Of a DNA stretch of 64,000 bases, positions 18,437 through 30,878 are shown piece after piece. This stretch comes from Gemmatimonadota bacterium (GTDB lineage Bacteria > Gemmatimonadota > Gemmatimonadetes > Palauibacterales > KS3-K002). The position numbers and the translations under genes were made by a program. The stretch lies in the NCBI GenBank assembly GCA_039586795.1, contig JBDHJS010000007.1, positions 32,001-96,000 of the forward strand, in the 5' to 3' direction. How positions within the stretch are numbered: position 1 is the first letter of the stretch; the number at the start of each line of letters is the position of its first letter. The notes beneath the pieces are model-generated. The model did not search any database and was not told where the DNA came from. It saw only the letters and a list, made by a program, of their open reading frames with translations.

Positions 18437-19144
18437 ATGAATAGAGGCCAGATCTGCGCCGGGACTTCCGGCTTCTCGTATCCGGAATGGAAGGGCTCGT
18501 TCTATCCGGAGAAGCTGCCCCAAAAGAGGTTCCTCGAATACTACGCTGGCAAGTTCTCGACCGTCGAGATCAACAACACGTTCTATCGCTTCCCACGGTC
18601 AAGCCTGCTGGAAGGGTGGCGCGATGGAACGCCCGATGGCTTCACTTTCGCCGTGAAGGCGAACCAAGGGATCACTCACAAAGGTCGCTTGCGCGAAGTC
18701 GAGGAGCTGACTCGAGACTTCATCGAGCGATGCAAGTTGCTGGGGGGCAAACTCGGCCCGATCCTCTTTCAGTTGCCTCCCAATTTCAAACGCGATGACG
18801 AGCGCCTGGCGGATTTCCTGGACGCACTCGACCCACGCATGCGTTTCGCCTTCGAATTCCGTCACGCAAGCTGGTTCGATGACGCCGTGTTCGCGATGCT
18901 GTCCGACTCGGGAGCGGCGCTCTGTCTCTCGGAAGGCGATAAACTGGACACGCCACGTGTCGCCACCGGAGAGTTCGTGTACGCTCGGCTGCGCAAAGAG
19001 GAATACACGGACGCAGAGCTAGCCGACTGGCACGTCTGGATGAGCGAGCAGGCGGCGACGGGGCGAGATGTCTTCGCCTACCTGAAACACGACGAAGAGG
19101 GCGAATCGCCGGAATACGTCCTGCGGTTGCTGGCCGGGGGCTAG
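18437..19144 (+). CDS. DUF72 (YecE-like) protein
   Basis: GTSGFSYPEWKGSFYP, TVEINNTFY, LFQLPP, EFRHASW. Confidence 0.92.
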   Translation: MNRGQICAGTSGFSYPEWKGSFYPEKLPQKRFLEYYAGKFSTVEINNTFYRFPRSSLLEGWRDGTPDGFTFAVKANQGITHKGRLREVEELTRDFIERCKLLGGKLGPILFQLPPNFKRDDERLADFLDALDPRMRFAFEFRHASWFDDAVFAMLSDSGAALCLSEGDKLDTPRVATGEFVYARLRKEEYTDAELADWHVWMSEQAATGRDVFAYLKHDEEGESPEYVLRLLAGG

Positions 19145-20202: not shown

Positions 20203-20943
20203 CTACAGCTTCTTCACCCAGATATTGCGGAAGTAGATTGGGCTGCGGCTGTCATGGTTCTGCAGGCCGATATATCCGCGTGGGGCGAAGTCGGCGATCT
20301 TGCCCCGAGGTTCGGCCTGCCAGTCGACAACGGTCTCTCCGTTGAGCTCCACCGTGATGCGGTCGCCGATGAAGCTGATGCGGTAGTGATTCCACTCGCC
20401 GGCTGGCCGGAATGCCGCGTGGGTGGGTGCCTCGGCGTCATAGACCGCGGCAGTCTGGTGGATGCCCTCGCCCACATCGTTGATCTGAACTTCGAAGCTG
20501 TGGTAGATGTAGTCGTCGCTGGTCGGTACCCCGGGCACGCGGATGAATATCCCGGAGTTGGTCACTTCGTCCGAACACCTGTACTCGAGGTCGAGGATGA
20601 AGTCGCCATATTCTTCCGCGGCGTACCACATGAGCCCCATCCCACCGTGCCCCTTTAGCACGCCCGTCTCGCGGTCGAGCTCGAAATGGCCCGGCCCGTA
20701 GTGGTTCCATCCGTGTTTGTTGAAGCGGCCGTTATGCTCCCTGAGGATCCGTTCGAAGCCGGGGCCCGGGCTCTCGTCCTGTCTGTCAGTCATGATCTCA
20801 TAGGATGCGTACAACCCGACGGGAAGCAACACGATCAAAGCAAGAGTGACCCACCTCATGCAAAACCAGCCTTTCCAGTCGTAAACCATCAACGCCACCA
20901 TTAGGTCCGTGATTCTTCTCACCTCGAGTTCCGGGGGTTCCAC
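20203..20943 (-). CDS. DUF1080 (3-keto-disaccharide hydrolase family) protein, exported or anchored
   Basis: YGDFILDLEY, NSGIFIR, EVQIND, GEWNHYRI, GYIGLQNH, IYFRNIWVK; true start may be MRWVTL at 20859. Confidence 0.9.
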   Translation of the reverse strand: MEPPELEVRRITDLMVALMVYDWKGWFCMRWVTLALIVLLPVGLYASYEIMTDRQDESPGPGFERILREHNGRFNKHGWNHYGPGHFELDRETGVLKGHGGMGLMWYAAEEYGDFILDLEYRCSDEVTNSGIFIRVPGVPTSDDYIYHSFEVQINDVGEGIHQTAAVYDAEAPTHAAFRPAGEWNHYRISFIGDRITVELNGETVVDWQAEPRGKIADFAPRGYIGLQNHDSRSPIYFRNIWVKKL

Positions 20944-22172
20944 TCGCCCTTCGCGACCGCGGGAACGAAGCTTTCGAGGTCCGGCGGTGGGAATGGGATC
21001 GTCTTGCCCTGCTCCGCGCTCATGTAAGCGGTCATGAGAAGCTCGGTCACATTGAGACCGTCGTCGAAGTTCTCGACCGGTCGCTTCCCGGCGAGGAACG
21101 ACCGAACCATGTGACGGTTTTCGCCGATGTAGCCGTACTCGCTCTCCTCATCGGCGACCACCGGCATCAATCCCACCTCGGCGTTTTGCTTCTCCACAAG
21201 GTCCTCACCAGAGTCACCTCGCACCTCTCGGCTGAAGAAGACGCGCGGTCCCGCATCCAGCGAGTTCACCGACAACGAATACTCCGGTCCCAGTAGCTCC
21301 ATGCTGAGGCGCAGGCCCGCACCGACGAAGCACCACGACGTGGTCGCCTCGACGATCCGCTCGTTCCCGTCCGCATCCCGATATTCGACCATGGCCCGGG
21401 CGAAGTCCTCGGCGGGCCGATTGAGGTAGTCGGTTGCGCCGTCACTGTTCTCCGACAGGATCTTCGCGTAATGCGGTTGCTGCCACTTCAGGCAGGAGGT
21501 GTGCGCCGTCACCTTGACCGGCGTCAAGACAGTTCGCTCGGCGCCCGGCGGCGTCAGCAAATGACGAGCGACCTCGACAGAGTGACACATCATGTCGTTG
21601 AGCACGCCGCCGCCCTGGAGCTCTCCCTCCCAGAACCAGGGCATATGAGGGCCGCTGTGCTCCTCCGCCGCGCGAGCCAGGTAGGGCGGTCCGGTCAACG
21701 CAGCGCCCCGAGCCCAGAGGATGTCCTTCCCGCGCACGACGGCGGGCGAAAAGAGCTGGTTTTCCAGATAGCCATCCAGGAGCCCCGCCCGCTGGACCAT
21801 CTCGAGCATCTGTCGCGCCTCGGCGGCGTTGCGGCCTAGCGGCTTCTCGCAAGCGACACCTACCAGTTCGCCTTTCCCGCTCTCGATGGCATGGACGATC
21901 TCTTCCATGATCTCGACGCGGGTGAAGTTGGGAGCACAAATCCAGAGCGCATCGATGGCGGGGTCCGCAACCATGTCGGTGACCGTATCGTAGGGCTTCG
22001 CATCACCGACACCCAGGCTATTCGCCAAGGCCACGGCTTCTTCGACTGTGCCATCGCTCCGGCCGGTGACACCCATGACATCCGCGTCGCGCACAGCTAC
22101 AAAAGATCGGACATGAAACTTTCCGACGAACCCACCGCCAACGAACCCAACGCCAAGTCTCTTATTAGCCAT
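20919..22172 (-). CDS. Gfo/Idh/MocA family NAD(P)-dependent oxidoreductase, no signal peptide
   Basis: GFVGGGFVG, ACEKPL, GGGVLNDMMCH. Confidence 0.9.
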   Translation of the reverse strand: MANKRLGVGFVGGGFVGKFHVRSFVAVRDADVMGVTGRSDGTVEEAVALANSLGVGDAKPYDTVTDMVADPAIDALWICAPNFTRVEIMEEIVHAIESGKGELVGVACEKPLGRNAAEARQMLEMVQRAGLLDGYLENQLFSPAVVRGKDILWARGAALTGPPYLARAAEEHSGPHMPWFWEGELQGGGVLNDMMCHSVEVARHLLTPPGAERTVLTPVKVTAHTSCLKWQQPHYAKILSENSDGATDYLNRPAEDFARAMVEYRDADGNERIVEATTSWCFVGAGLRLSMELLGPEYSLSVNSLDAGPRVFFSREVRGDSGEDLVEKQNAEVGLMPVVADEESEYGYIGENRHMVRSFLAGKRPVENFDDGLNVTELLMTAYMSAEQGKTIPFPPPDLESFVPAVAKGEWNPRNSR

Positions 22173-22194: not shown

Positions 22195-23412
22195 TCAAAC
22201 CGCAGCGGTTGCCGGCGCCTTTTCTTCTCTGAAGAACAGCAGGAATGCCACGGCACAGATGATCGTCAAAACGCAAGGTACCAGGAACACGTTGGTCCAG
22301 TTTGTTCCGGCATCCGTCGTGAATACATCTTTGATCCAGCCGGCGAACAGGCTGCCGAGGAATCGACCGAATCCGAGGGCGACGATCGCGATCAAGCTTT
22401 GCGCCGATGCCCGAATGTCCGGCGGTGCCACGCTGTCCACGTAGATGAACGCCGCGACGAAGAAGAACACGTAACAGAAGCCGTGCAGCGCCATGGACGC
22501 GATCACCAGCCAGGCCGGAGCACCGATGGCAAAGATCACGTAGCGGATCGGCCAGGCGATGACGCCGAACGCCAGCGTCTTCCGCATCCCGTACTTCTTG
22601 AGGAAATGGGAGAGCAGGAACGCCATGACGAAGATCTCCGCCACCTGCGCGATCGTCATGACCAGCGGCGTGTTGTTGGGCGAGACACCGATCTTGTCCG
22701 ACTCGAGGAACGGTGCCGTCAGGATGTAGTAGAACTCCAGCTCGGTAGCCACGACGAAGGTGATGCCGATGAAGATCGCGAAGTCCTTCGACTTGAGCAT
22801 CTTCAACGACTCAAGGAACGCCCAGGGGTTCACGCCTTCTTTTTGCGGCGGCGTATGCGGAAGCGTGAACGACTGAAGCCCCATGATGATCGAGAACAGA
22901 CCGGCGAGGAACAGCATGTCGCCCTGGATGCCAGGCAGCACGTCGCCTTCCACCAGCCAGCGGCCGCCGGTCAACAGCCAACCCGCGGCGATCCAACCCA
23001 ACGTGCCGCCCACTCGAATCCCGCCGAACTCTTCCTCGGAATCGGTGAGATTCATCATGGCGATGGAGTTCGTCAGGGCGAGAGTCGGCGCGTAGACGAG
23101 GCAATAGACGAGCATCAGAATCGCCATCAGGCTGAAGTCGGTCACCCTCGACAGCGCGATCAGCAGGATGCCGCCTGAAAACGCGAGGAACCCGATGACT
23201 TTCTCGGACGCGAAATAGCGGTCGGCGACCTGTCCTCCGACGAACGGAGCGATGATCGTCGCCAGTGGAAGCAAGGCGTAAATCGCTCCGATCTGGAAGC
23301 CGCTGAAGCCGAGTCCGCTATCGCCCAGATACGCCGAGAGCACGGGGGCCCATGAGCCCCAGATGGCGTACTGGAGGAACATCATGATCCAGAGGCGGGT
23401 CTTTGCGCTCAA
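22195..23412 (-). CDS. MFS transporter, NupG-like nucleoside/sugar:H+ symporter family
   Basis: MMFLQYAIWGSW, GQVADRYF, IRVGGTLGW, QVAEIF, LHGFCY, RASAQ. Confidence 0.9.
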   Translation of the reverse strand: MSAKTRLWIMMFLQYAIWGSWAPVLSAYLGDSGLGFSGFQIGAIYALLPLATIIAPFVGGQVADRYFASEKVIGFLAFSGGILLIALSRVTDFSLMAILMLVYCLVYAPTLALTNSIAMMNLTDSEEEFGGIRVGGTLGWIAAGWLLTGGRWLVEGDVLPGIQGDMLFLAGLFSIIMGLQSFTLPHTPPQKEGVNPWAFLESLKMLKSKDFAIFIGITFVVATELEFYYILTAPFLESDKIGVSPNNTPLVMTIAQVAEIFVMAFLLSHFLKKYGMRKTLAFGVIAWPIRYVIFAIGAPAWLVIASMALHGFCYVFFFVAAFIYVDSVAPPDIRASAQSLIAIVALGFGRFLGSLFAGWIKDVFTTDAGTNWTNVFLVPCVLTIICAVAFLLFFREEKAPATAAV

Positions 23413-23446: not shown

Positions 23447-25054
23447 TTACACGATCCTCCGATTCACGGGATCCCACGTGACTCGGCGACCTTCCATGAA
23501 CGAGCGTGTCGCCATGTGACAGGTGATCGCCTCCTCGAAGCCGCGTTCGATATCGCAGCTGACCTGGCCACCGTTGCGAATCACGTCTAACCACTCGGCG
23601 ATATGGAGGTGGTAGGCGCTGACGCGTCGGCCTCCCCGGTACGTGAAGAGCAGCCCACGGCTGGCGAAGTACTCCTCGGTCGCCGATGTCACCGCATCGA
23701 TCCCCCTGAAACCGGGGCGGTAGGTGAACATGGGCAGCGAGGGATCGATGATATCGTCATCGATCTTCTTCTCGTAACGCGTCGAGCTACGGTCGGCAGT
23801 GATCGTCAAGCCGCTGCCCACCTGCATGGTCGCATCGTGACCCATATACAGCTGGCCGCGGTACTTACCGTTAGCGAGAGTCGCGCTGTAGATCATCGTC
23901 AGGTCGCGATCGGGATACTCGAAGGCGGCCTGGAACACATCCGGCACATCGCGGCCATCCTTGAAGTAGTAGATGCCGCCAGTCGCGACGGCGCTGTGTG
24001 GGATACCGACTTCGAGAATCTGGTTCACCGCGTCGAACTCGTGGGACAGCAGGTCACCGGAGAGGCCGGTACCGTAGTCGTACCAGCAACGCCACCGGAA
24101 GAATCTCTCGAGGCTGAACGGTACCTTATTGGGCGCCGGACCCTGAAACAGATCCCAGTCGATGGTGTTCTCATTGCCCTCTTCGTGAATGTCGTACTGC
24201 CAGGCGCCCGTTGGACTGTTCCGGTTCGTTGTAGTCTCGACAAGCGTGATCGGGCCGAGGATGTCATGGTCCATTATCTCCCGGGCCTTTATGTGGGCCT
24301 CGGACTGGCGGTTCTGATGTCCCAACTGGAAGACGATGTCCGAGTTGGTCACGGCATCGTACATCGCGTGCGCCTCTTCCTCCGTGCGAGTCATGCACTT
24401 CTCGCAGTATACGTGCTTACCAGCCGCCGCCGCGTCGACTGTCATCTGGGAGTGCCAGTGGTCCGGCGTTGCGATGATCACGGCATCGACGTCGGGACTA
24501 TCGAGGAGATCCTGATAGTTGACGAAGCGTGTCGCGCCCGCGCCCGCCGGTGCGCCACCGGGCCGCACATCGTTTTTTGAGGCGGCGATGCCGCGCTCGG
24601 CTCTGACGTCGAACACGTCGCACACAGCCGTGAGTTCGACATTCAGATCATCCTGTGCGAGCCAGTTCTCCAGCCGTTTGTTCTTTGGATCCTCCTCAGC
24701 GGCCTTCCTCAGGTCCTCTACCCAATCGGGAGGAGCGAAACCAGCGTTCCTCAGCAGCGATTGGCCTTCTCCACCGTTGCCGATGATGCCCAGCCGGATT
24801 CGATCGCCTGGCGGACGCGAGATGGCCTCGGGAATGACGGCCGGCGCGCCCTCCGTGACACCCAGCTCGGACAGGATCTCGCTGCGCCTGAAATCGTCCT
24901 CGGCCTTCTTCTTCAGAAAACCGTAGAAGAACACGCCGAGGACGGGAATCGAGGCCAGCGCCTTGAGCACATCCCTGCGGTTTATGCCGCCAGTCGCACC
25001 GGATTCGGGCGTTCCGGAGTGGTTCATGCCTGTGTCTTTCTTCTCGGGTTCCAT
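23447..25054 (-). CDS. Tat-anchored Gfo/Idh/MocA oxidoreductase with candidate flavinylation motif
   Basis: NRRDVLK plus hydrophobic helix; IATPDHWH, HVYCEKC, FRWRCWYDYGTG; IDAVTSAT. Confidence 0.9.
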   Translation of the reverse strand: MEPEKKDTGMNHSGTPESGATGGINRRDVLKALASIPVLGVFFYGFLKKKAEDDFRRSEILSELGVTEGAPAVIPEAISRPPGDRIRLGIIGNGGEGQSLLRNAGFAPPDWVEDLRKAAEEDPKNKRLENWLAQDDLNVELTAVCDVFDVRAERGIAASKNDVRPGGAPAGAGATRFVNYQDLLDSPDVDAVIIATPDHWHSQMTVDAAAAGKHVYCEKCMTRTEEEAHAMYDAVTNSDIVFQLGHQNRQSEAHIKAREIMDHDILGPITLVETTTNRNSPTGAWQYDIHEEGNENTIDWDLFQGPAPNKVPFSLERFFRWRCWYDYGTGLSGDLLSHEFDAVNQILEVGIPHSAVATGGIYYFKDGRDVPDVFQAAFEYPDRDLTMIYSATLANGKYRGQLYMGHDATMQVGSGLTITADRSSTRYEKKIDDDIIDPSLPMFTYRPGFRGIDAVTSATEEYFASRGLLFTYRGGRRVSAYHLHIAEWLDVIRNGGQVSCDIERGFEEAITCHMATRSFMEGRRVTWDPVNRRIV

Positions 25055-25101
25055 CTTCTCAACTCCCGCGCTGTCGTTGCTTCATGCGAAGGCCACGCTC
25101 A

Positions 25102-25620
25102 CTACGCGGCCGCAGGCATGCTGGCGGCCTGCTCACCCGTTCGTTTCTTCCAGAAGATCAGCCGGTCCAGTCCGACGATCTGGCCGGTGGGGAACGCCAG
25201 CGTGACGAACAGGGCGGCAAGCTCAATGAGTGTCTTGTTGACGATGATGTAGTTGCCTTCCCTGGGCATGGAGTAGGTGTAGCCCGGGAACGGCGGGTTA
25301 GCTACGTAGTAGAGGCAAAGCAAGACGATCCCCGCGATGACCGCGGCACGGGTCAAGCAACCCAGCAGCAGCCCCAGTCCGATCGCGATCAATCCCCAGG
25401 TGTTCAGGAAATCGACGAAGCCAAGCATCCCCGGGCTGGCAGAAATCGATTGGAAGATACCTGAGAATAGCCATCTCGAGTCCGCCAAGAACTCGGCAGA
25501 TGTCCAGTAGGGGTTGATCGCCTTGGCAATTCCCTCGTAGAGGAAATGCCATCCGATCAGCATGCGCAGCGCTACAAGCGCCGTCGTTTGAAAGTTCGAG
25601 TAGTCCGTCGCCCGCTGCAT
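25102..25620 (-). CDS. DoxX/DoxD family membrane protein
   Basis: LRMLIGWHFLYEGIAK, GLGLLLGCLTR, VNKTLIE, GLDR. Confidence 0.88.
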   Translation of the reverse strand: MQRATDYSNFQTTALVALRMLIGWHFLYEGIAKAINPYWTSAEFLADSRWLFSGIFQSISASPGMLGFVDFLNTWGLIAIGLGLLLGCLTRAAVIAGIVLLCLYYVANPPFPGYTYSMPREGNYIIVNKTLIELAALFVTLAFPTGQIVGLDRLIFWKKRTGEQAASMPAAA

Positions 25621-25676
25621 CGCACACCTACCTTCCGTACTCTGTCTACGGTTACTGTCTGACGCCTATCGTCTTC

Positions 25677-26690
25677 TTATCCTCCCCATCCCCGCGACTT
25701 CCACTTTCCACCACGCGCGTCGACAACAAGGCACTCGCACTGAGGTATCGCGCTGACGAATCTGACACCCGCCTGCGGGTTCATGATGAAAATGCTCGTG
25801 GCTAGCGCGTCAGCTGCCATCGCCGTCGGCGCTATCACCGAGACGCTCTTGCTTAAGTCCGGAGACGCACCGGTTCTCGAGTTAACTATGTGGTGGTACA
25901 ACCGCTCGTGGTCGAAATAGATTTCATAGCTTCCGGAGGTCGCCACCGCACCGTCACCCATTTGAATGATGTCCGGGTAGTCACCTTCCTTCTCCGGGTC
26001 CTGCACCGCTACGGCCCACGGCTGCCCCCCTTCTTTGGCGCCCGCCGTACGCACATCACCGCCGGCGTTGATCAGGTAAGACTTTAGGCCGGACCGCGAG
26101 AGGCTTTCCGATACTCTGTCGACGATGAACCCCTTTGCGATACCGTCGAGCGTGATGCCCATGCCTTGTCTGCGGAAGCGTATCGCGTTGGGTGAGAGCT
26201 CTATGTGGCGTGAGCCAACCAGCTCCAGGATATCCGCAACTTCTCGTTCTTCCGGTCTTGCCGTATTCGTGCTGAAGAGGTCGACGAGCGGCTTCACCGT
26301 TACGTCGAACGCGCCACGGCTCAGCCGGTGGTAGTGCAAAGCGCGACCCACAACGCGGGTTACCTCGGGCGGTGAATCGAGCAGCCGACCCTGACGATTC
26401 AGGTCCGAGACGGCCGACGCACCATCGAACCGATTGAACAGCGCGATTCGGCGGTCCATCTCTCGAAAAGCCTTCCCGATCGCATCCTCCGCCAGATCAC
26501 GCGATCGATGAAGCGCGGTGATCGAGATGAACGTTCCCATCGCTGGGCGTGCGCATGTCACCTTAACGGTACGTCGATCGACCCGCGTCGCCGCCGTCCT
26601 GACCGGGGACACTTCGACGCGCTCGAGGCCCAGGTCGGCAAGCACCGAGAGCTTCCGGGCGATCCGAGCCGCGTCGTTCATGTCCTGCAT
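25677..26690 (-). CDS. apbE: FAD:protein FMN transferase
   Basis: AMGT, GAFDVTVKPL, LDGIAKGFIVD, INAGGD, ATSGSYE, HHIVNSRTG, ADALAT. Confidence 0.93.
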   Translation of the reverse strand: MQDMNDAARIARKLSVLADLGLERVEVSPVRTAATRVDRRTVKVTCARPAMGTFISITALHRSRDLAEDAIGKAFREMDRRIALFNRFDGASAVSDLNRQGRLLDSPPEVTRVVGRALHYHRLSRGAFDVTVKPLVDLFSTNTARPEEREVADILELVGSRHIELSPNAIRFRRQGMGITLDGIAKGFIVDRVSESLSRSGLKSYLINAGGDVRTAGAKEGGQPWAVAVQDPEKEGDYPDIIQMGDGAVATSGSYEIYFDHERLYHHIVNSRTGASPDLSKSVSVIAPTAMAADALATSIFIMNPQAGVRFVSAIPQCECLVVDARGGKWKSRGWGG

Positions 26691-27647
26691 CTAGCGGCGT
26701 TCCTCCGCGAGCTGATCGCGGGTCCGCTCCAGGAGCGTCTTCGTCGCGCGGATCCCATCCGGCTCGCTCAGGCGGCTACCCTCGTACTCGATCCCCACGT
26801 ACCCGTGATAGCCGGCATCCAGAACGATTCCCAACATGCGTTTGTAGTCGGTATGAATCTCGTTGCCTTGCTCGTCGAAATCGTGTGATTTTGCGCTTAC
26901 CGCCTTCGCGTAGGGCATCATCTCCTGGACACCCAGGTAGCGATCGTACCAGACATCCTCCGCGATTCGGAAGTTGCCGAAGTCCGGAAGCGTCCCACAG
27001 CGCGGACTGCCGACCGCCTCGATGACACTCGCTAGCCAGGCTCCATTCGACGACAATCCACCGTGGTTTTCGATGATGACGTTGATGTCGAAGGCCGAAG
27101 CCTCTTCCGTCAGCCGCCGTAACCCATCAACCGCTAGCTCCCGCTGCTCCTCCGGTGTCCCCTCCGAGCGCGCATTGACTCGAATCGAATGACAGCCGAG
27201 AAACTTGGCCGCGTGAATCCACCGGTGATGGTTCAGAACCGCTCGCAGGCGCTCGACCTGGTCCGGCGCTCCCAGCGCGCCCTCACCGTCAACCATGATG
27301 AGAAGGCTCTTCACGCCATTGTCGTCCGCCCGAAGTTTCAACTCGGACAGATAAGCCTCGTCCTCCGCCTTGTCCTTGAAGAAAGAGTTCACGTACTCGA
27401 CGGCGTCGAGTCCGTAGTCAACACGGGCGACGCGGGGAAATTCGAGCGCGTCGAGTTCGCCGGCGTTGAGCGTACGGTGCAGCGACCACTGGGCGAGGGA
27501 GACTTTGAACAACGGCTGGTTAGCCGGCGGTATATGACCGCAGCCCGTCAGAAACGAGGGGCCCGCCAGGTAGGTTGCCGGGGTAGCCATTGCGATGCCC
27601 GCCAAGAACCGGCGACGGCTCATAGAACCTCGCGACGGTAGAACCAT
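26691..27647 (-). CDS. Sugar phosphate isomerase/epimerase-type TIM barrel, Tat lipoprotein
   Basis: SRRRFL, lipobox [38 protein letters not shown]. Confidence 0.9.
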
Positions 27648-27830: not shown

Positions 27831-28418
27831 TTAGCGTGTGGCCTGGTAGTAAGGATTGGAGCCCATCGAGTGGTCGGTGATATCGATCACTTCCGAGACC
27901 TCAGGGAACGCCTCGCGGATCAGCCTTTCGACCCCCTGCTTCAGCGTAACCGTGGCCATCCCACACCCCTGGCAGCCGCCGGATAGCTGGACGTAAACCA
28001 CGTTGTCCCTCACATCCACTAGAACGATCCGCCCACCATGCGCCGCAACTGCCGGGTTGATCTGAGCCTCCATAAACTGAGCGACCCTCTGGGCCAGCTC
28101 ACCGCTGGGCGGCTCCGAGCCGATCGGCTTGATGTTCGGGTTCTCGACCTGAAAGCCGCCACCACCCATCGACTCGACCCAATCTACCGAGGCGCCCTCC
28201 AGCTTTTCGACGCTCGCCTGGTCCACATAGACCTTGAACCCGTCCGCGTCGAAGATCGTGTCATCGGGCTGTTGGTCGGACTCGTCCACCAGCATGAGCT
28301 CGTACTGAGGCGCCAGCGGGCTGCCCGAGTGGACGGCGATGCGCAGCGCCACACCGCCCTCTTCTTCTTGAATGAACGACAGCACCCGCTCCCGGGCCTT
28401 GTCGGTGAACGTCAGCAT
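27831..28418 (-). CDS. nfuA: Fe-S biogenesis protein NfuA (degenerate A-type domain plus NifU-C)
   Basis: INPAVAAHGG, GGCQGCGMATVTLKQGVE, DITDH, NPYY. Confidence 0.88.
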   Translation of the reverse strand: MLTFTDKARERVLSFIQEEEGGVALRIAVHSGSPLAPQYELMLVDESDQQPDDTIFDADGFKVYVDQASVEKLEGASVDWVESMGGGGFQVENPNIKPIGSEPPSGELAQRVAQFMEAQINPAVAAHGGRIVLVDVRDNVVYVQLSGGCQGCGMATVTLKQGVERLIREAFPEVSEVIDITDHSMGSNPYYQATR

Positions 28419-28553
28419 CCGATACCTCACGAAGCTCTGGGTCCTCTGGGTGGCCACACTTCTGGCCTTTCGCTCTGAAACTACTGTAATATAGCAGCGT
28501 GGCCGAGGAGCGCAGCCGGTAGGAAATCCAGCCGGTCGACCCGGAGGTGGCGG

Positions 28554-29653: not shown

Positions 29654-30133
29654 ATGAGCAACGCGGAAAGAGAGAAGGCGCGCCTCCGGGAACGGCACGA
29701 GGCCCACGTCAGAGCCTGGAACGAGTACGATCTGGGGGCCCTGGGCGAGATCTACGATGCGAACTGCCTCATATTCGATGCTATCGCGCCACCTAAGTCC
29801 CACACTCTGAGTGACTTCCTGACTCACCTGACACCGTTGCTCCAGTCCAACAATGGCTTCCAGCTTCGCACCTTCGACCAAGTTCTGCGCATCGATGAAA
29901 AGGGCGACAGCAAGATTGGCTGGATTACCTCACGCTACGAGGTAGAGGTCCGCTACACCGATGGAATCTACCGCAGGTGTGGCCGCTGGACCGAGATCTA
30001 TGAGCGACAGCTGGAGAACTGGAAGCTGACGCATTTGCACTCGTCCGACGACAGCGCGAACGCTCTGACTAGAAGAGGTTCAGTTGTGGATCGAGCTCGT
30101 CGGGCTCGGTCACTGGCTGGCCGAGGCGTTTGA
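29654..30133 (+). CDS. SnoaL/NTF2-like protein
   Basis: AWNEYDL, GRWTEIY, WKLTHLHSS; 3' end overlaps the convergent DUF72 gene. Confidence 0.75.
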   Translation: MSNAEREKARLRERHEAHVRAWNEYDLGALGEIYDANCLIFDAIAPPKSHTLSDFLTHLTPLLQSNNGFQLRTFDQVLRIDEKGDSKIGWITSRYEVEVRYTDGIYRRCGRWTEIYERQLENWKLTHLHSSDDSANALTRRGSVVDRARRARSLAGRGV

Positions 30134-30878
30134 GCAGCCGCCGTGCACTGGCTGGCGAGTGGCCTTCGTAGTGGTTGTTGAAGAAGCCATAGACCTCCCG
30201 GACCTGACCTGAAAGCTCCTTCAGCACTTTCGCCCACCCGGCGATCTCGGTTGTCCGGTCGAATAGTGTTTCCGCATAGCTATCCAGATGAGGGCGATCA
30301 CCCAACCATCTGAAGTAGGCAATCTCAGAAGTCGGTTTCAATGCTTCCCGCATCACCTGATCCCTGGGAATCCACGGCCCGTCTGACAGCGCCAATCCGA
30401 CATCGGACGATCTGAGCAGATCGCCTACGTCAGCCGTGTGCCAGTCCCGCTGGCGGAATTCAACACAGAACCGGAAACCATCCGGAAGCCGCCGGAGGAA
30501 CGCCTCCAGCACCGCCCGGTCTGCCGGCGTGAAATCAGGTGGCAGCTGCACCAGTATGACGCCGAGCTTCTCCTCGAGGAGCTCTGCTCGCTTGCAGAAC
30601 GTCCTGACTACTTCGTCCCCGCCGCGCAGCCGCTTCTCATGGGTCACTTCGCCGGGAAGCTTGAGGGCGAAGCGGAAGGCATCCGGCGTGCGCTCGCGCC
30701 AGCCAATGAAATGCGAGGCCGGCGGCACTGCGTAGAACGAACTGTCCACCTCCACCGCCGTGAACGCCCTGGCGTAGACGCTCAGATACCGGGAGCTCGG
30801 CGTACCCTCGGGATAGAACGGCCCGGTCCAATCCGGATAGGACCAGCCCTGAGTGCCGATGAAGAATGAAGCCGTCAC
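30069..30878 (-). CDS. DUF72 protein, second paralog
   Basis: GTQGWSYPDW.GPFYP, VEVDSSFY, QLPP, FFNNHYEGHSP. Confidence 0.92.
   Translation of the reverse strand: MTASFFIGTQGWSYPDWTGPFYPEGTPSSRYLSVYARAFTAVEVDSSFYAVPPASHFIGWRERTPDAFRFALKLPGEVTHEKRLRGGDEVVRTFCKRAELLEEKLGVILVQLPPDFTPADRAVLEAFLRRLPDGFRFCVEFRQRDWHTADVGDLLRSSDVGLALSDGPWIPRDQVMREALKPTSEIAYFRWLGDRPHLDSYAETLFDRTTEIAGWAKVLKELSGQVREVYGFFNNHYEGHSPASARRLLKRLGQPVTEPDELDPQLNLF

Follow-up and report, generated by a model that had tools for sequence, protein, structure and literature searches.

The gene cluster around apbE, doxX and gfoA on contig JBDHJS010000007.1 of a Gemmatimonadota bacterium was analysed in a window of 64,000 nucleotides (nt), to which all coordinates refer unless a locus is named. 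It likely encodes an undescribed route by which electrons from sugars that are oxidised outside the cytoplasm would enter the respiratory chain. GfoA, a dehydrogenase of the Gfo/Idh/MocA family, is proposed to carry flavin mononucleotide (FMN), covalently attached by ApbE, and to deliver electrons to the membrane protein DoxX. For the whole chain, running from sugar via bound nicotinamide adenine dinucleotide (NAD), covalent FMN and DoxX to what is likely quinone, we estimate a probability of roughly 0.58. The four features on which this proposal is built are:

25677..26690, minus strand: apbE, flavin adenine dinucleotide (FAD):protein FMN transferase of 337 amino acids (aa; Pfam PF02424, 243.9 bits)
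25102..25620, minus strand: doxX, 172-aa membrane protein with four predicted helices (PF07681, 25.6 bits)
23447..25054, minus strand: gfoA, Gfo/Idh/MocA dehydrogenase of 535 aa (PF01408) with a twin-arginine anchor and, in its C-terminal part, an insert that contains the motif
23678..23698, minus strand: DAVTSAT motif in GfoA (residues 453-459, found by pattern search), with Thr459 as predicted FMN acceptor

The original prediction, made from the letters of this stretch, had described apbE, doxX and the 535-aa Gfo/Idh/MocA gene as consecutive and co-oriented, and the three minus-strand open reading frames were confirmed; its position for DAVTSAT is exact. Taken alone, the motif match is weak. 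The relaxed pattern D-x-x-[ST]-[GS]-A-[ST] used in that prediction is present in 0.68% of shuffled GfoA sequences and has 38 matches in the 9,709 six-frame open reading frames of the genome. DAVTSAT is more than chance because it is conserved among homologs. All 120 close homologs (69-100% identity, query included) keep the motif, with D453, A454, S457 and A458 invariant and Thr or Ser always found at positions 456 and 459. This set says little alone, because 42% of all GfoA columns are at least 95% conserved in it; the flanks of the motif (YFASRGLLxTYR) are conserved to the same degree as the motif itself. At all 80 loci from GTDB genomes the site fits [DN]-x-x-T-[ST]-[AP]-[ST], the forms being DAVTSAT (31 loci), DTVTSAT (17), DAVTTPT (14), DAITSAT (5) and seven rarer ones. 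The pattern of the original prediction fits 60 of the 80, while a terminal Thr or Ser is present in every one. Among 97 representatives of more distant homologs (at least 370 aa), the motif occupies this site in 14, the lowest identity being approximately 38%, and two of these read DAVSGAT, which is the canonical form; canonical DAVSGAT or DGISGAT is found at the same site in P0137, P0140, L106 and L114. Most other distant relatives are without the insert, and the motif-bearing sequences group on a tree, a quick version of which was used only to check this grouping. A sister group has kept the insert and the final Ser/Thr and has lost the Asp; a metagenome scan aimed at this group yielded three members among 79 loci, all adjoining apbE, which are too few to count on.

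In the AlphaFold2 (AF2) model of GfoA (predicted local distance difference test, pLDDT, 87.6), residues 454-467 fall below 50 and form the sole low-confidence segment of the C-terminal half, which fits a mobile, ligand-ordered arm. No other conserved motif of this type was found in the eight operon proteins. In line with the earlier claim that no other obvious ApbE substrate lies nearby, the pattern has no further match on the contig among open reading frames of at least 150 aa. The second Gfo/Idh/MocA protein of the cluster (GfoB, listed below) was considered as an ApbE client and rejected; its SDGAT stretch (243-247) is not conserved.

The strongest reason for calling the motif an ApbE site is that it is linked to DoxX in two folds with the same substitutions. 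Fifteen DoxX-GfoA fusion proteins were found, in which the twin-arginine anchor is kept after the DoxX part; the motif is present in all 14 sequences inspected. One 766-aa 'fusion' (L068) was left out of this count, because a segment within it resembles a start and the neighbouring gene is frameshifted. The same DoxX subfamily, again with the anchor, is fused to an unrelated domain in 48 proteins of approximately 500 aa. For this domain no Pfam, PDB-sequence or Atlas family was found, and in hhalign comparisons it has only the 29-column anchor in common with the Gfo family. All 48 fusions carry the motif about 15 residues after the anchor, seven of them in strictly canonical form (e.g. DATSGAS, DAVTGAT), and 35 fit the pattern of the original prediction. 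Among genomic copies of these fusions the motif was found in 22 of 22 (20 loci; six canonical); the intact relatives of the unnamed domain that are free of DoxX all lack it (9/9) and have twin-arginine translocation (Tat) signals, one truncated copy being left uncounted. These unnamed-domain fusions (P0307, P0330 and relatives; L231-L250) often occur in several copies per genome. Common to both folds are Gly, Ser or Thr at position 5, Ala or Pro at position 6 and Thr or Ser at position 7. On these comparisons the heptapeptide, which occupies different positions in the two folds, tracks DoxX rather than the Gfo fold.

Comparative evidence also supports the reading of the cluster's apbE as a dedicated copy for GfoA. 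PF02424 covers the protein over its full length (profile positions 1-265 of 266), and the stretches DGIAKG, NAGGD, ATSG, YHHI and ADALAT, which we take to be conserved motifs of the ApbE type, are present. Neither this ApbE nor its co-oriented homologs have a lipoprotein or export signal by hydropathy and inspection, no dedicated predictor having been run. Being without a signal peptide, the enzyme likely acts in the cytoplasm before Tat export. An ApbE located in the cytoplasm would suit a client exported by Tat, and there is precedent for one (PMC12052999). Divergently oriented ApbE copies of Aminicenantes resemble lipoproteins. The 2021 survey (PMC8238504) dropped apbE genes without a signal peptide or lipidation site, so that, as described there, the present case would escape it. 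The genome harbours three apbE genes, of which one is located at the rnf operon and one by another FMN_bind gene, and the copy in the cluster has no classical client nearby. A role of this copy as Rnf maturase was rejected, since separate apbE genes accompany the rnf operon and the second FMN_bind gene. The rnf operon of this genome (C79, L101:13401-18449 to 9103) follows a gene that by eye encodes a 1,683-aa pyruvate:ferredoxin-oxidoreductase-like protein, and ends with a Tat-signal apbE.

Of the 51 GTDB loci for which 3.5 kb or more of upstream sequence is available, 44 have apbE in the flanks of gfoA, in the same orientation at 35 and divergent at 9. It was also found at eight of nine loci of the own phylum, the ninth lying at a contig edge, and at 11 of 14 Acidobacteriota loci, where it is an additional copy in all 11 genomes. 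Some genomes are shared between the locus samples, and counts across samples are not additive. The single apbE of genome G044 (100% complete) stands beside doxX-gfoA. No FMN_bind gene was found in G044 in a loose first look that may miss genes; a weak RnfD-like match is without the motif, a DUF2271 match is under the cut-off, and no convincing client emerged. The DUF3570 search in this genome is uninformative, with no match in any control genome. At the genome level, all 21 genomes of the own phylum that have an ortholog also carry apbE, versus 93 of 180 others, kin not being independent, and every ortholog-bearing genome searched for apbE has one somewhere. For the phylum of genome G201 such presence is uninformative, because 111 of 113 genomes have an apbE.

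DoxX as the partner of GfoA is likewise supported by comparative evidence. The gene lies upstream of gfoA at every one of the 75 GTDB loci whose upstream sequence extends to 300 nt or more and at all 14 Acidobacteriota loci; it is likewise upstream at 16 of the 20 loci of the G201 phylum and in 10 of 13 regions of family f10. The Fulvitalea homolog has only a short, different DoxX-family gene, located downstream. DoxD is part of thiosulfate:quinone oxidoreductase (Pfam PF04173). DoxX resembles it in having a related small membrane fold, with 15 of 97 DoxX homologs matching PF04173 and 96 matching DoxX; unlike DoxD, the window protein matches DoxX only, marginally, and sits in a sugar operon. 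The protein (AF2 model pLDDT 91) retains polar residues in or near the membrane (H25, E29, K33, D70, E121, N128, E133), and G23, H25, G30, K33, W39, G81, G87, G150 and D152 are invariant. By structure, the model comes closest to the assembly factor NACHO/TMEM35A (Z 12.2, root-mean-square deviation 3.1, 121 positions aligned), a level that can reflect a common helical bundle only. The predicted GfoA-DoxX complex gave a weak pass (0.52 versus 0.00 for the best control; 63% or more of the contacts shared between runs, pLDDT of the partner 82 or higher), to be read against a calibration in which only 18 of 157 solved complexes, and both passing mismatches, scored 0.60 or less. The prediction tool rates a pass of this kind more often wrong than right unless the pairing is likely beforehand.

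GfoA itself has three domains above the cut-off (PF01408, PF22725, PF02894), corresponding to a Rossmann NAD(P) domain and a C-terminal alpha/beta domain, with which the fold matches agree. Its best PDB matches are 8tdf and 8tdh, the glucoside 3-dehydrogenase AL3 (E 5e-24). Four of the six named active-site residues of AL3 align identically (Gln161, Arg192, Asp248 and His252 with Q247, R278, D334 and H338 of GfoA), while Trp195 has no directly aligned counterpart and Tyr349 falls beyond the aligned region. The twin arginine (R26-R27) is present in 118 of 120 homologs, the other two having gaps; the twin-arginine motif is without the consensus Phe, and tatC is present in the genome. GfoA is predicted to be exported by Tat and tethered by an uncleaved-looking N-terminal anchor. 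The DoxX fusions match the pattern of an even number of transmembrane domains, a twin arginine and a single transmembrane domain, which is that of Sec/Tat dual-targeted proteins (PMC5449189).

The remaining genes of the cluster and its upstream neighbour are:

26691..27647, minus strand: AP_endonuc_2 sugar-isomerase-fold protein (PF01261) with Tat signal SRRRFL, likely a 3-keto-glycoside lyase
22195..23412, minus strand: NupG-like transporter of the major facilitator superfamily (MFS; PF03825, 337.7 bits), likely importer of the sugar product
20919..22172, minus strand: gfoB, second Gfo/Idh/MocA protein of 417 aa (PF01408), signal-less, likely a cytoplasmic keto-sugar reductase
20203..20943, minus strand: DUF1080 (3-keto-disaccharide hydrolase family) protein (PF06439, 135 bits)
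27831..28457: nfuA-like iron-sulphur carrier gene, upstream of the cluster

The sequence of GfoB begins right at the Rossmann strand. The DUF1080 protein has a hydrophobic N-terminal stretch by hydropathy, and the real start of its gene is probably downstream of the listed GTG. The AP_endonuc_2 gene belongs to the cluster at many loci, not all. The NupG-like transporter gene comes after gfoA at most loci, and gfoB and the importer are found together downstream of gfoA at most of them. The nfuA gene was found in the flank of 7 of 80 GTDB loci, close relatives only, and is probably outside the system for this reason. DUF72-like genes are located on both sides of the cluster, a few kb away (18437-19144, by Pfam; 30069-30878, by eye). 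A scan of the locus for promoters and terminators gave nothing exceeding chance. In one RNA run, parts of gfoA, nupG and nfuA are represented by five short contigs whose sequence is identical to that of the window, such contigs being no proof of transcription. A plasmid search gave two full-length orthologs only, at approximately 49% identity. Close homologs of GfoA occur in Gemmatimonadota, Acidobacteriota, Marinimicrobia and Bacteroidota; that of the culturable Parabacteroides distasonis has the motif DSVTSPT and doxX immediately upstream.

A mechanism is proposed because AL3 is the nearest solved structure by sequence, with four of six residues aligned, and because the cluster contains the same four pathway families. 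Gene order, protein families, motif conservation, fusions and co-occurrence were directly observed, and each step below is inferred. The signal-less ApbE would very probably flavinylate Thr459 in the cytoplasm, and GfoA, folded and loaded with NAD and FMN, would leave via Tat and stay tethered by its signal helix; flavinylation of GfoA, considered alone, is put at the same high confidence. It is probable that GfoA would then oxidise a glycoside hydroxyl, most likely at C3 as in AL3/BT2158, using tightly bound NAD. With somewhat less assurance, the covalent FMN on its mobile arm is proposed to take the hydride from NADH and to dock on DoxX. The reduction of quinone by DoxX, suggested by analogy with DoxD, is given slightly better than even odds. 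Cleavage of the 3-keto-glycoside outside the cytoplasm is assigned to the lyase together with the DUF1080 protein; the keto-sugar would then enter through the MFS protein and be reduced by cytoplasmic GfoB.

The original prediction had combined a flavinylated GfoA, a DoxX partner and an ApbE of its own. Comparative evidence, part of it independent of the Gfo fold, supports these three links and the conservation of the motif; the expected restriction of the motif to loci with an adjacent apbE did not hold, and a number of observations weigh against the proposal. DAVTSAT departs from the strict ApbE substrate motif D-x-x-[S/T]-G-A-[S/T] (PMC12052999) by having Ser instead of Gly at position 5; a Gly-to-Ala change in the motif halved flavinylation and did not abolish it, according to the same source. 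At 20 of the 80 GTDB loci the site deviates further (TTPT, TTAT, or N for D), the DoxX-adjacent copies of f10 read E-A-x-T-[SA]-A-T with Glu for Asp, and a divergent DoxX fusion (L275) is without the motif. In two f10 loci (L088, L089), two tandem GfoA paralogs follow doxX, both with Glu for the motif Asp. The Pfam match of DoxX is marginal (25.6 bits, cut-off 23.6), and no solved redox protein was found among the fold matches of its model. Against the equivalog NF058561 of the BT2158 family GfoA scores 119 bits, far below the cut-off of 750, and its substrate is accordingly only a presumed glycoside.

Further counter-evidence comes from the gene neighbourhoods. The flanks showed no apbE at any of the 20 loci of the G201 phylum, the 13 f10 regions, the two named Bacteroidota loci (Parabacteroides distasonis, Fulvitalea) or the 20 loci of DoxX fusions with the unnamed domain. 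At four marine metagenome loci neither apbE nor doxX was found in the flanks. The motif there reads DGISSAT, DGISGAT or DAVSGAT (L105, L106, L108, L114), and these homologs may have another membrane partner. Conversely, apbE flanks motif-less Gfo genes at 11 of 79 metagenome loci. It comes directly or one to two genes after a motif-less Tat Gfo at L130, L139, L141, L152, L154, L156, L168, L180 and L181; at several of these loci a second Gfo then follows, with a C-terminal insert reading LDAGAT, LDADVT or LDPEAS, which is possibly another divergent client. The prediction that genes beside other stand-alone doxX genes would carry the seven-residue motif failed (0/20). These 20 doxX genes (L211-L230) each adjoin a distant Gfo with a twin-arginine anchor (24-28% identity), whose clade has an invariant L-D-V-R-E-[T/S] where DAVTSAT aligns, and apbE was found in the flank of 8 of the 20. 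This stretch may be a divergent tag, a reading made only after the prediction had failed. Genes for a divergent ApbE, for a PMT_2 glycosyltransferase and for a small protein that is carbohydrate-binding-like often belong to the same cluster at the L211-L230 loci. In one of them (L224:6563-8143), a NapC/NirT cytochrome c is fused to an FGE-sulfatase-fold domain and contains DAITGPT; the fusion gene lies two genes downstream of doxX, immediately before a Tat Gfo gene.

These observations leave room for other explanations of the cluster. That GfoA is flavinylated and DoxX-bound, with a chain that only resets NAD occasionally or runs in reverse while the pathway is redox-neutral, is rather unlikely. 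Electron flow from NADH through FMN to quinone is downhill, and a signal-less GfoB with the importer after gfoA at most loci fits oxidation outside and reduction inside. This explanation draws support from AL3/BT3, for which recycling of NAD through reduction of 3-ketoglucose has been proposed and which, without a re-oxidant, stalls in its reduced form (10.1101/2024.03.25.586180), and from known ApbE clients, which mostly move electrons outward (PMC8238504). Alternatively, the motif could be a DoxX-docking or structural peptide that is not flavinylated, with ApbE serving another client or DoxX. In favour of this, the motif follows DoxX more closely than it follows apbE in the neighbourhood, its form is non-canonical, and the residues flanking it are equally conserved. 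What makes this improbable is that the motif alternates with canonical SGAT/TGAT in two folds that are unrelated, its last residue being Ser or Thr throughout, that it persists in marine homologs without a nearby doxX, and that neither another conserved motif in the eight operon proteins nor a classical client for the only apbE of G044 was found.

A third explanation, quite improbable, keeps the flavinylation of GfoA but has DoxX act as scaffold or as insertion chaperone, with oxygen or a different carrier re-oxidising the FMN; in another form of it, the substrate is no glycoside. The NACHO/TMEM35A match of the DoxX model points in this direction, as does the existence of motif-bearing homologs without a nearby doxX; the polar residues of DoxX in or near the membrane suggest a site for chemistry, and DoxX is fused to two different motif-bearing domains. 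Transfer of electrons from sugar through NAD and covalent FMN to DoxX is preferred over these explanations. A wider proposal, to which we give somewhat less than even odds, sees a portable adaptor in the combination of DoxX, twin-arginine anchor and short ApbE flavin tag. The adaptor would connect otherwise soluble periplasmic enzymes of at least two folds to the quinone pool; this would probably extend via divergent tags (LDVRE[T/S]) to further Gfo clades.

Judged from sequence, the system is real, well conserved and best filed as a variant of ApbE-based extracytosolic electron transfer. Extracytosolic proteins flavinylated by ApbE comprise NqrC/RnfG FMN_bind, NqrB/RnfD, DUF2271, DUF3570, Flavodoxin_4 and FMN_red (PMC8238504, PMC11334425, PMC12052999). 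As in those systems, apbE adjoins the gene of a D-x-x-[ST]-x-A-[ST] protein and that of a membrane protein, and the motif of GfoA is located on an insertion as in Flavodoxin_4 and FMN_red (PMC11334425). In contrast to them, an NAD-fold Gfo/Idh/MocA enzyme would serve as client here and DoxX as membrane partner, ApbE is without a signal peptide, and the proposed flow is inward, to quinone. Neither a Gfo/Idh/MocA client nor a DoxX partner is named in the survey passages on ApbE or was returned by term searches. No paper describing the system was found, including in searches combining ApbE, flavinylation and DoxX; these searches largely left out subscription journals and did not extend to the large tables of PMC8238504, which could list such clusters.

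Regarding the pathway, GfoA resembles AL3/BT2158 of the non-hydrolytic 3-keto-glycoside route (10.1101/2024.03.25.586180; PMC8121099), which are Tat-signal Gfo/Idh/MocA enzymes, in the four aligned active-site residues of AL3. The TIM-barrel isomerase, DUF1080 protein and second, signal-less Gfo of their clusters have counterparts here, which makes all four families of the 3-keto-glycoside clusters present (TIM-barrel, DUF1080, two Gfo), the TIM-barrel protein being matched by family and not by orthology to AL1/BT1. Unlike AL3/BT2158, GfoA is no equivalog (119 versus 750 bits) and has the anchor, the motif insert, DoxX and ApbE; AL3, as described in the same source, recycles NAD without a known electron chain, unlike the scheme for GfoA. 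LacABC, a glucoside 3-dehydrogenase of proteobacteria (PMC8121099), likewise links periplasmic C3 oxidation to the electron-transport chain, with the same downstream genes in the clusters. It is described as cytochrome c-dependent and is of an unrelated enzyme type, whereas an NAD-fold enzyme with covalent FMN and DoxX is proposed here. For the re-oxidation of NAD in exported Gfo/Idh/MocA enzymes, the paper in which the 3-keto-glycoside pathway was defined commits to no route and names cytochromes or small acceptors as possibilities (10.1101/2024.03.25.586180).

If the proposed chain is true, covalent FMN together with DoxX would be a concrete answer to how trapped NAD is re-oxidised in exported Gfo/Idh/MocA enzymes. 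It would add a new class of ApbE client, a new membrane partner and cytoplasmic flavinylation prior to export, and would give a role to a widespread DoxX subfamily. Should the adaptor proposal hold as well, DoxX would have a general redox function, which would explain the extracytoplasmic turnover of NAD-dependent enzymes.

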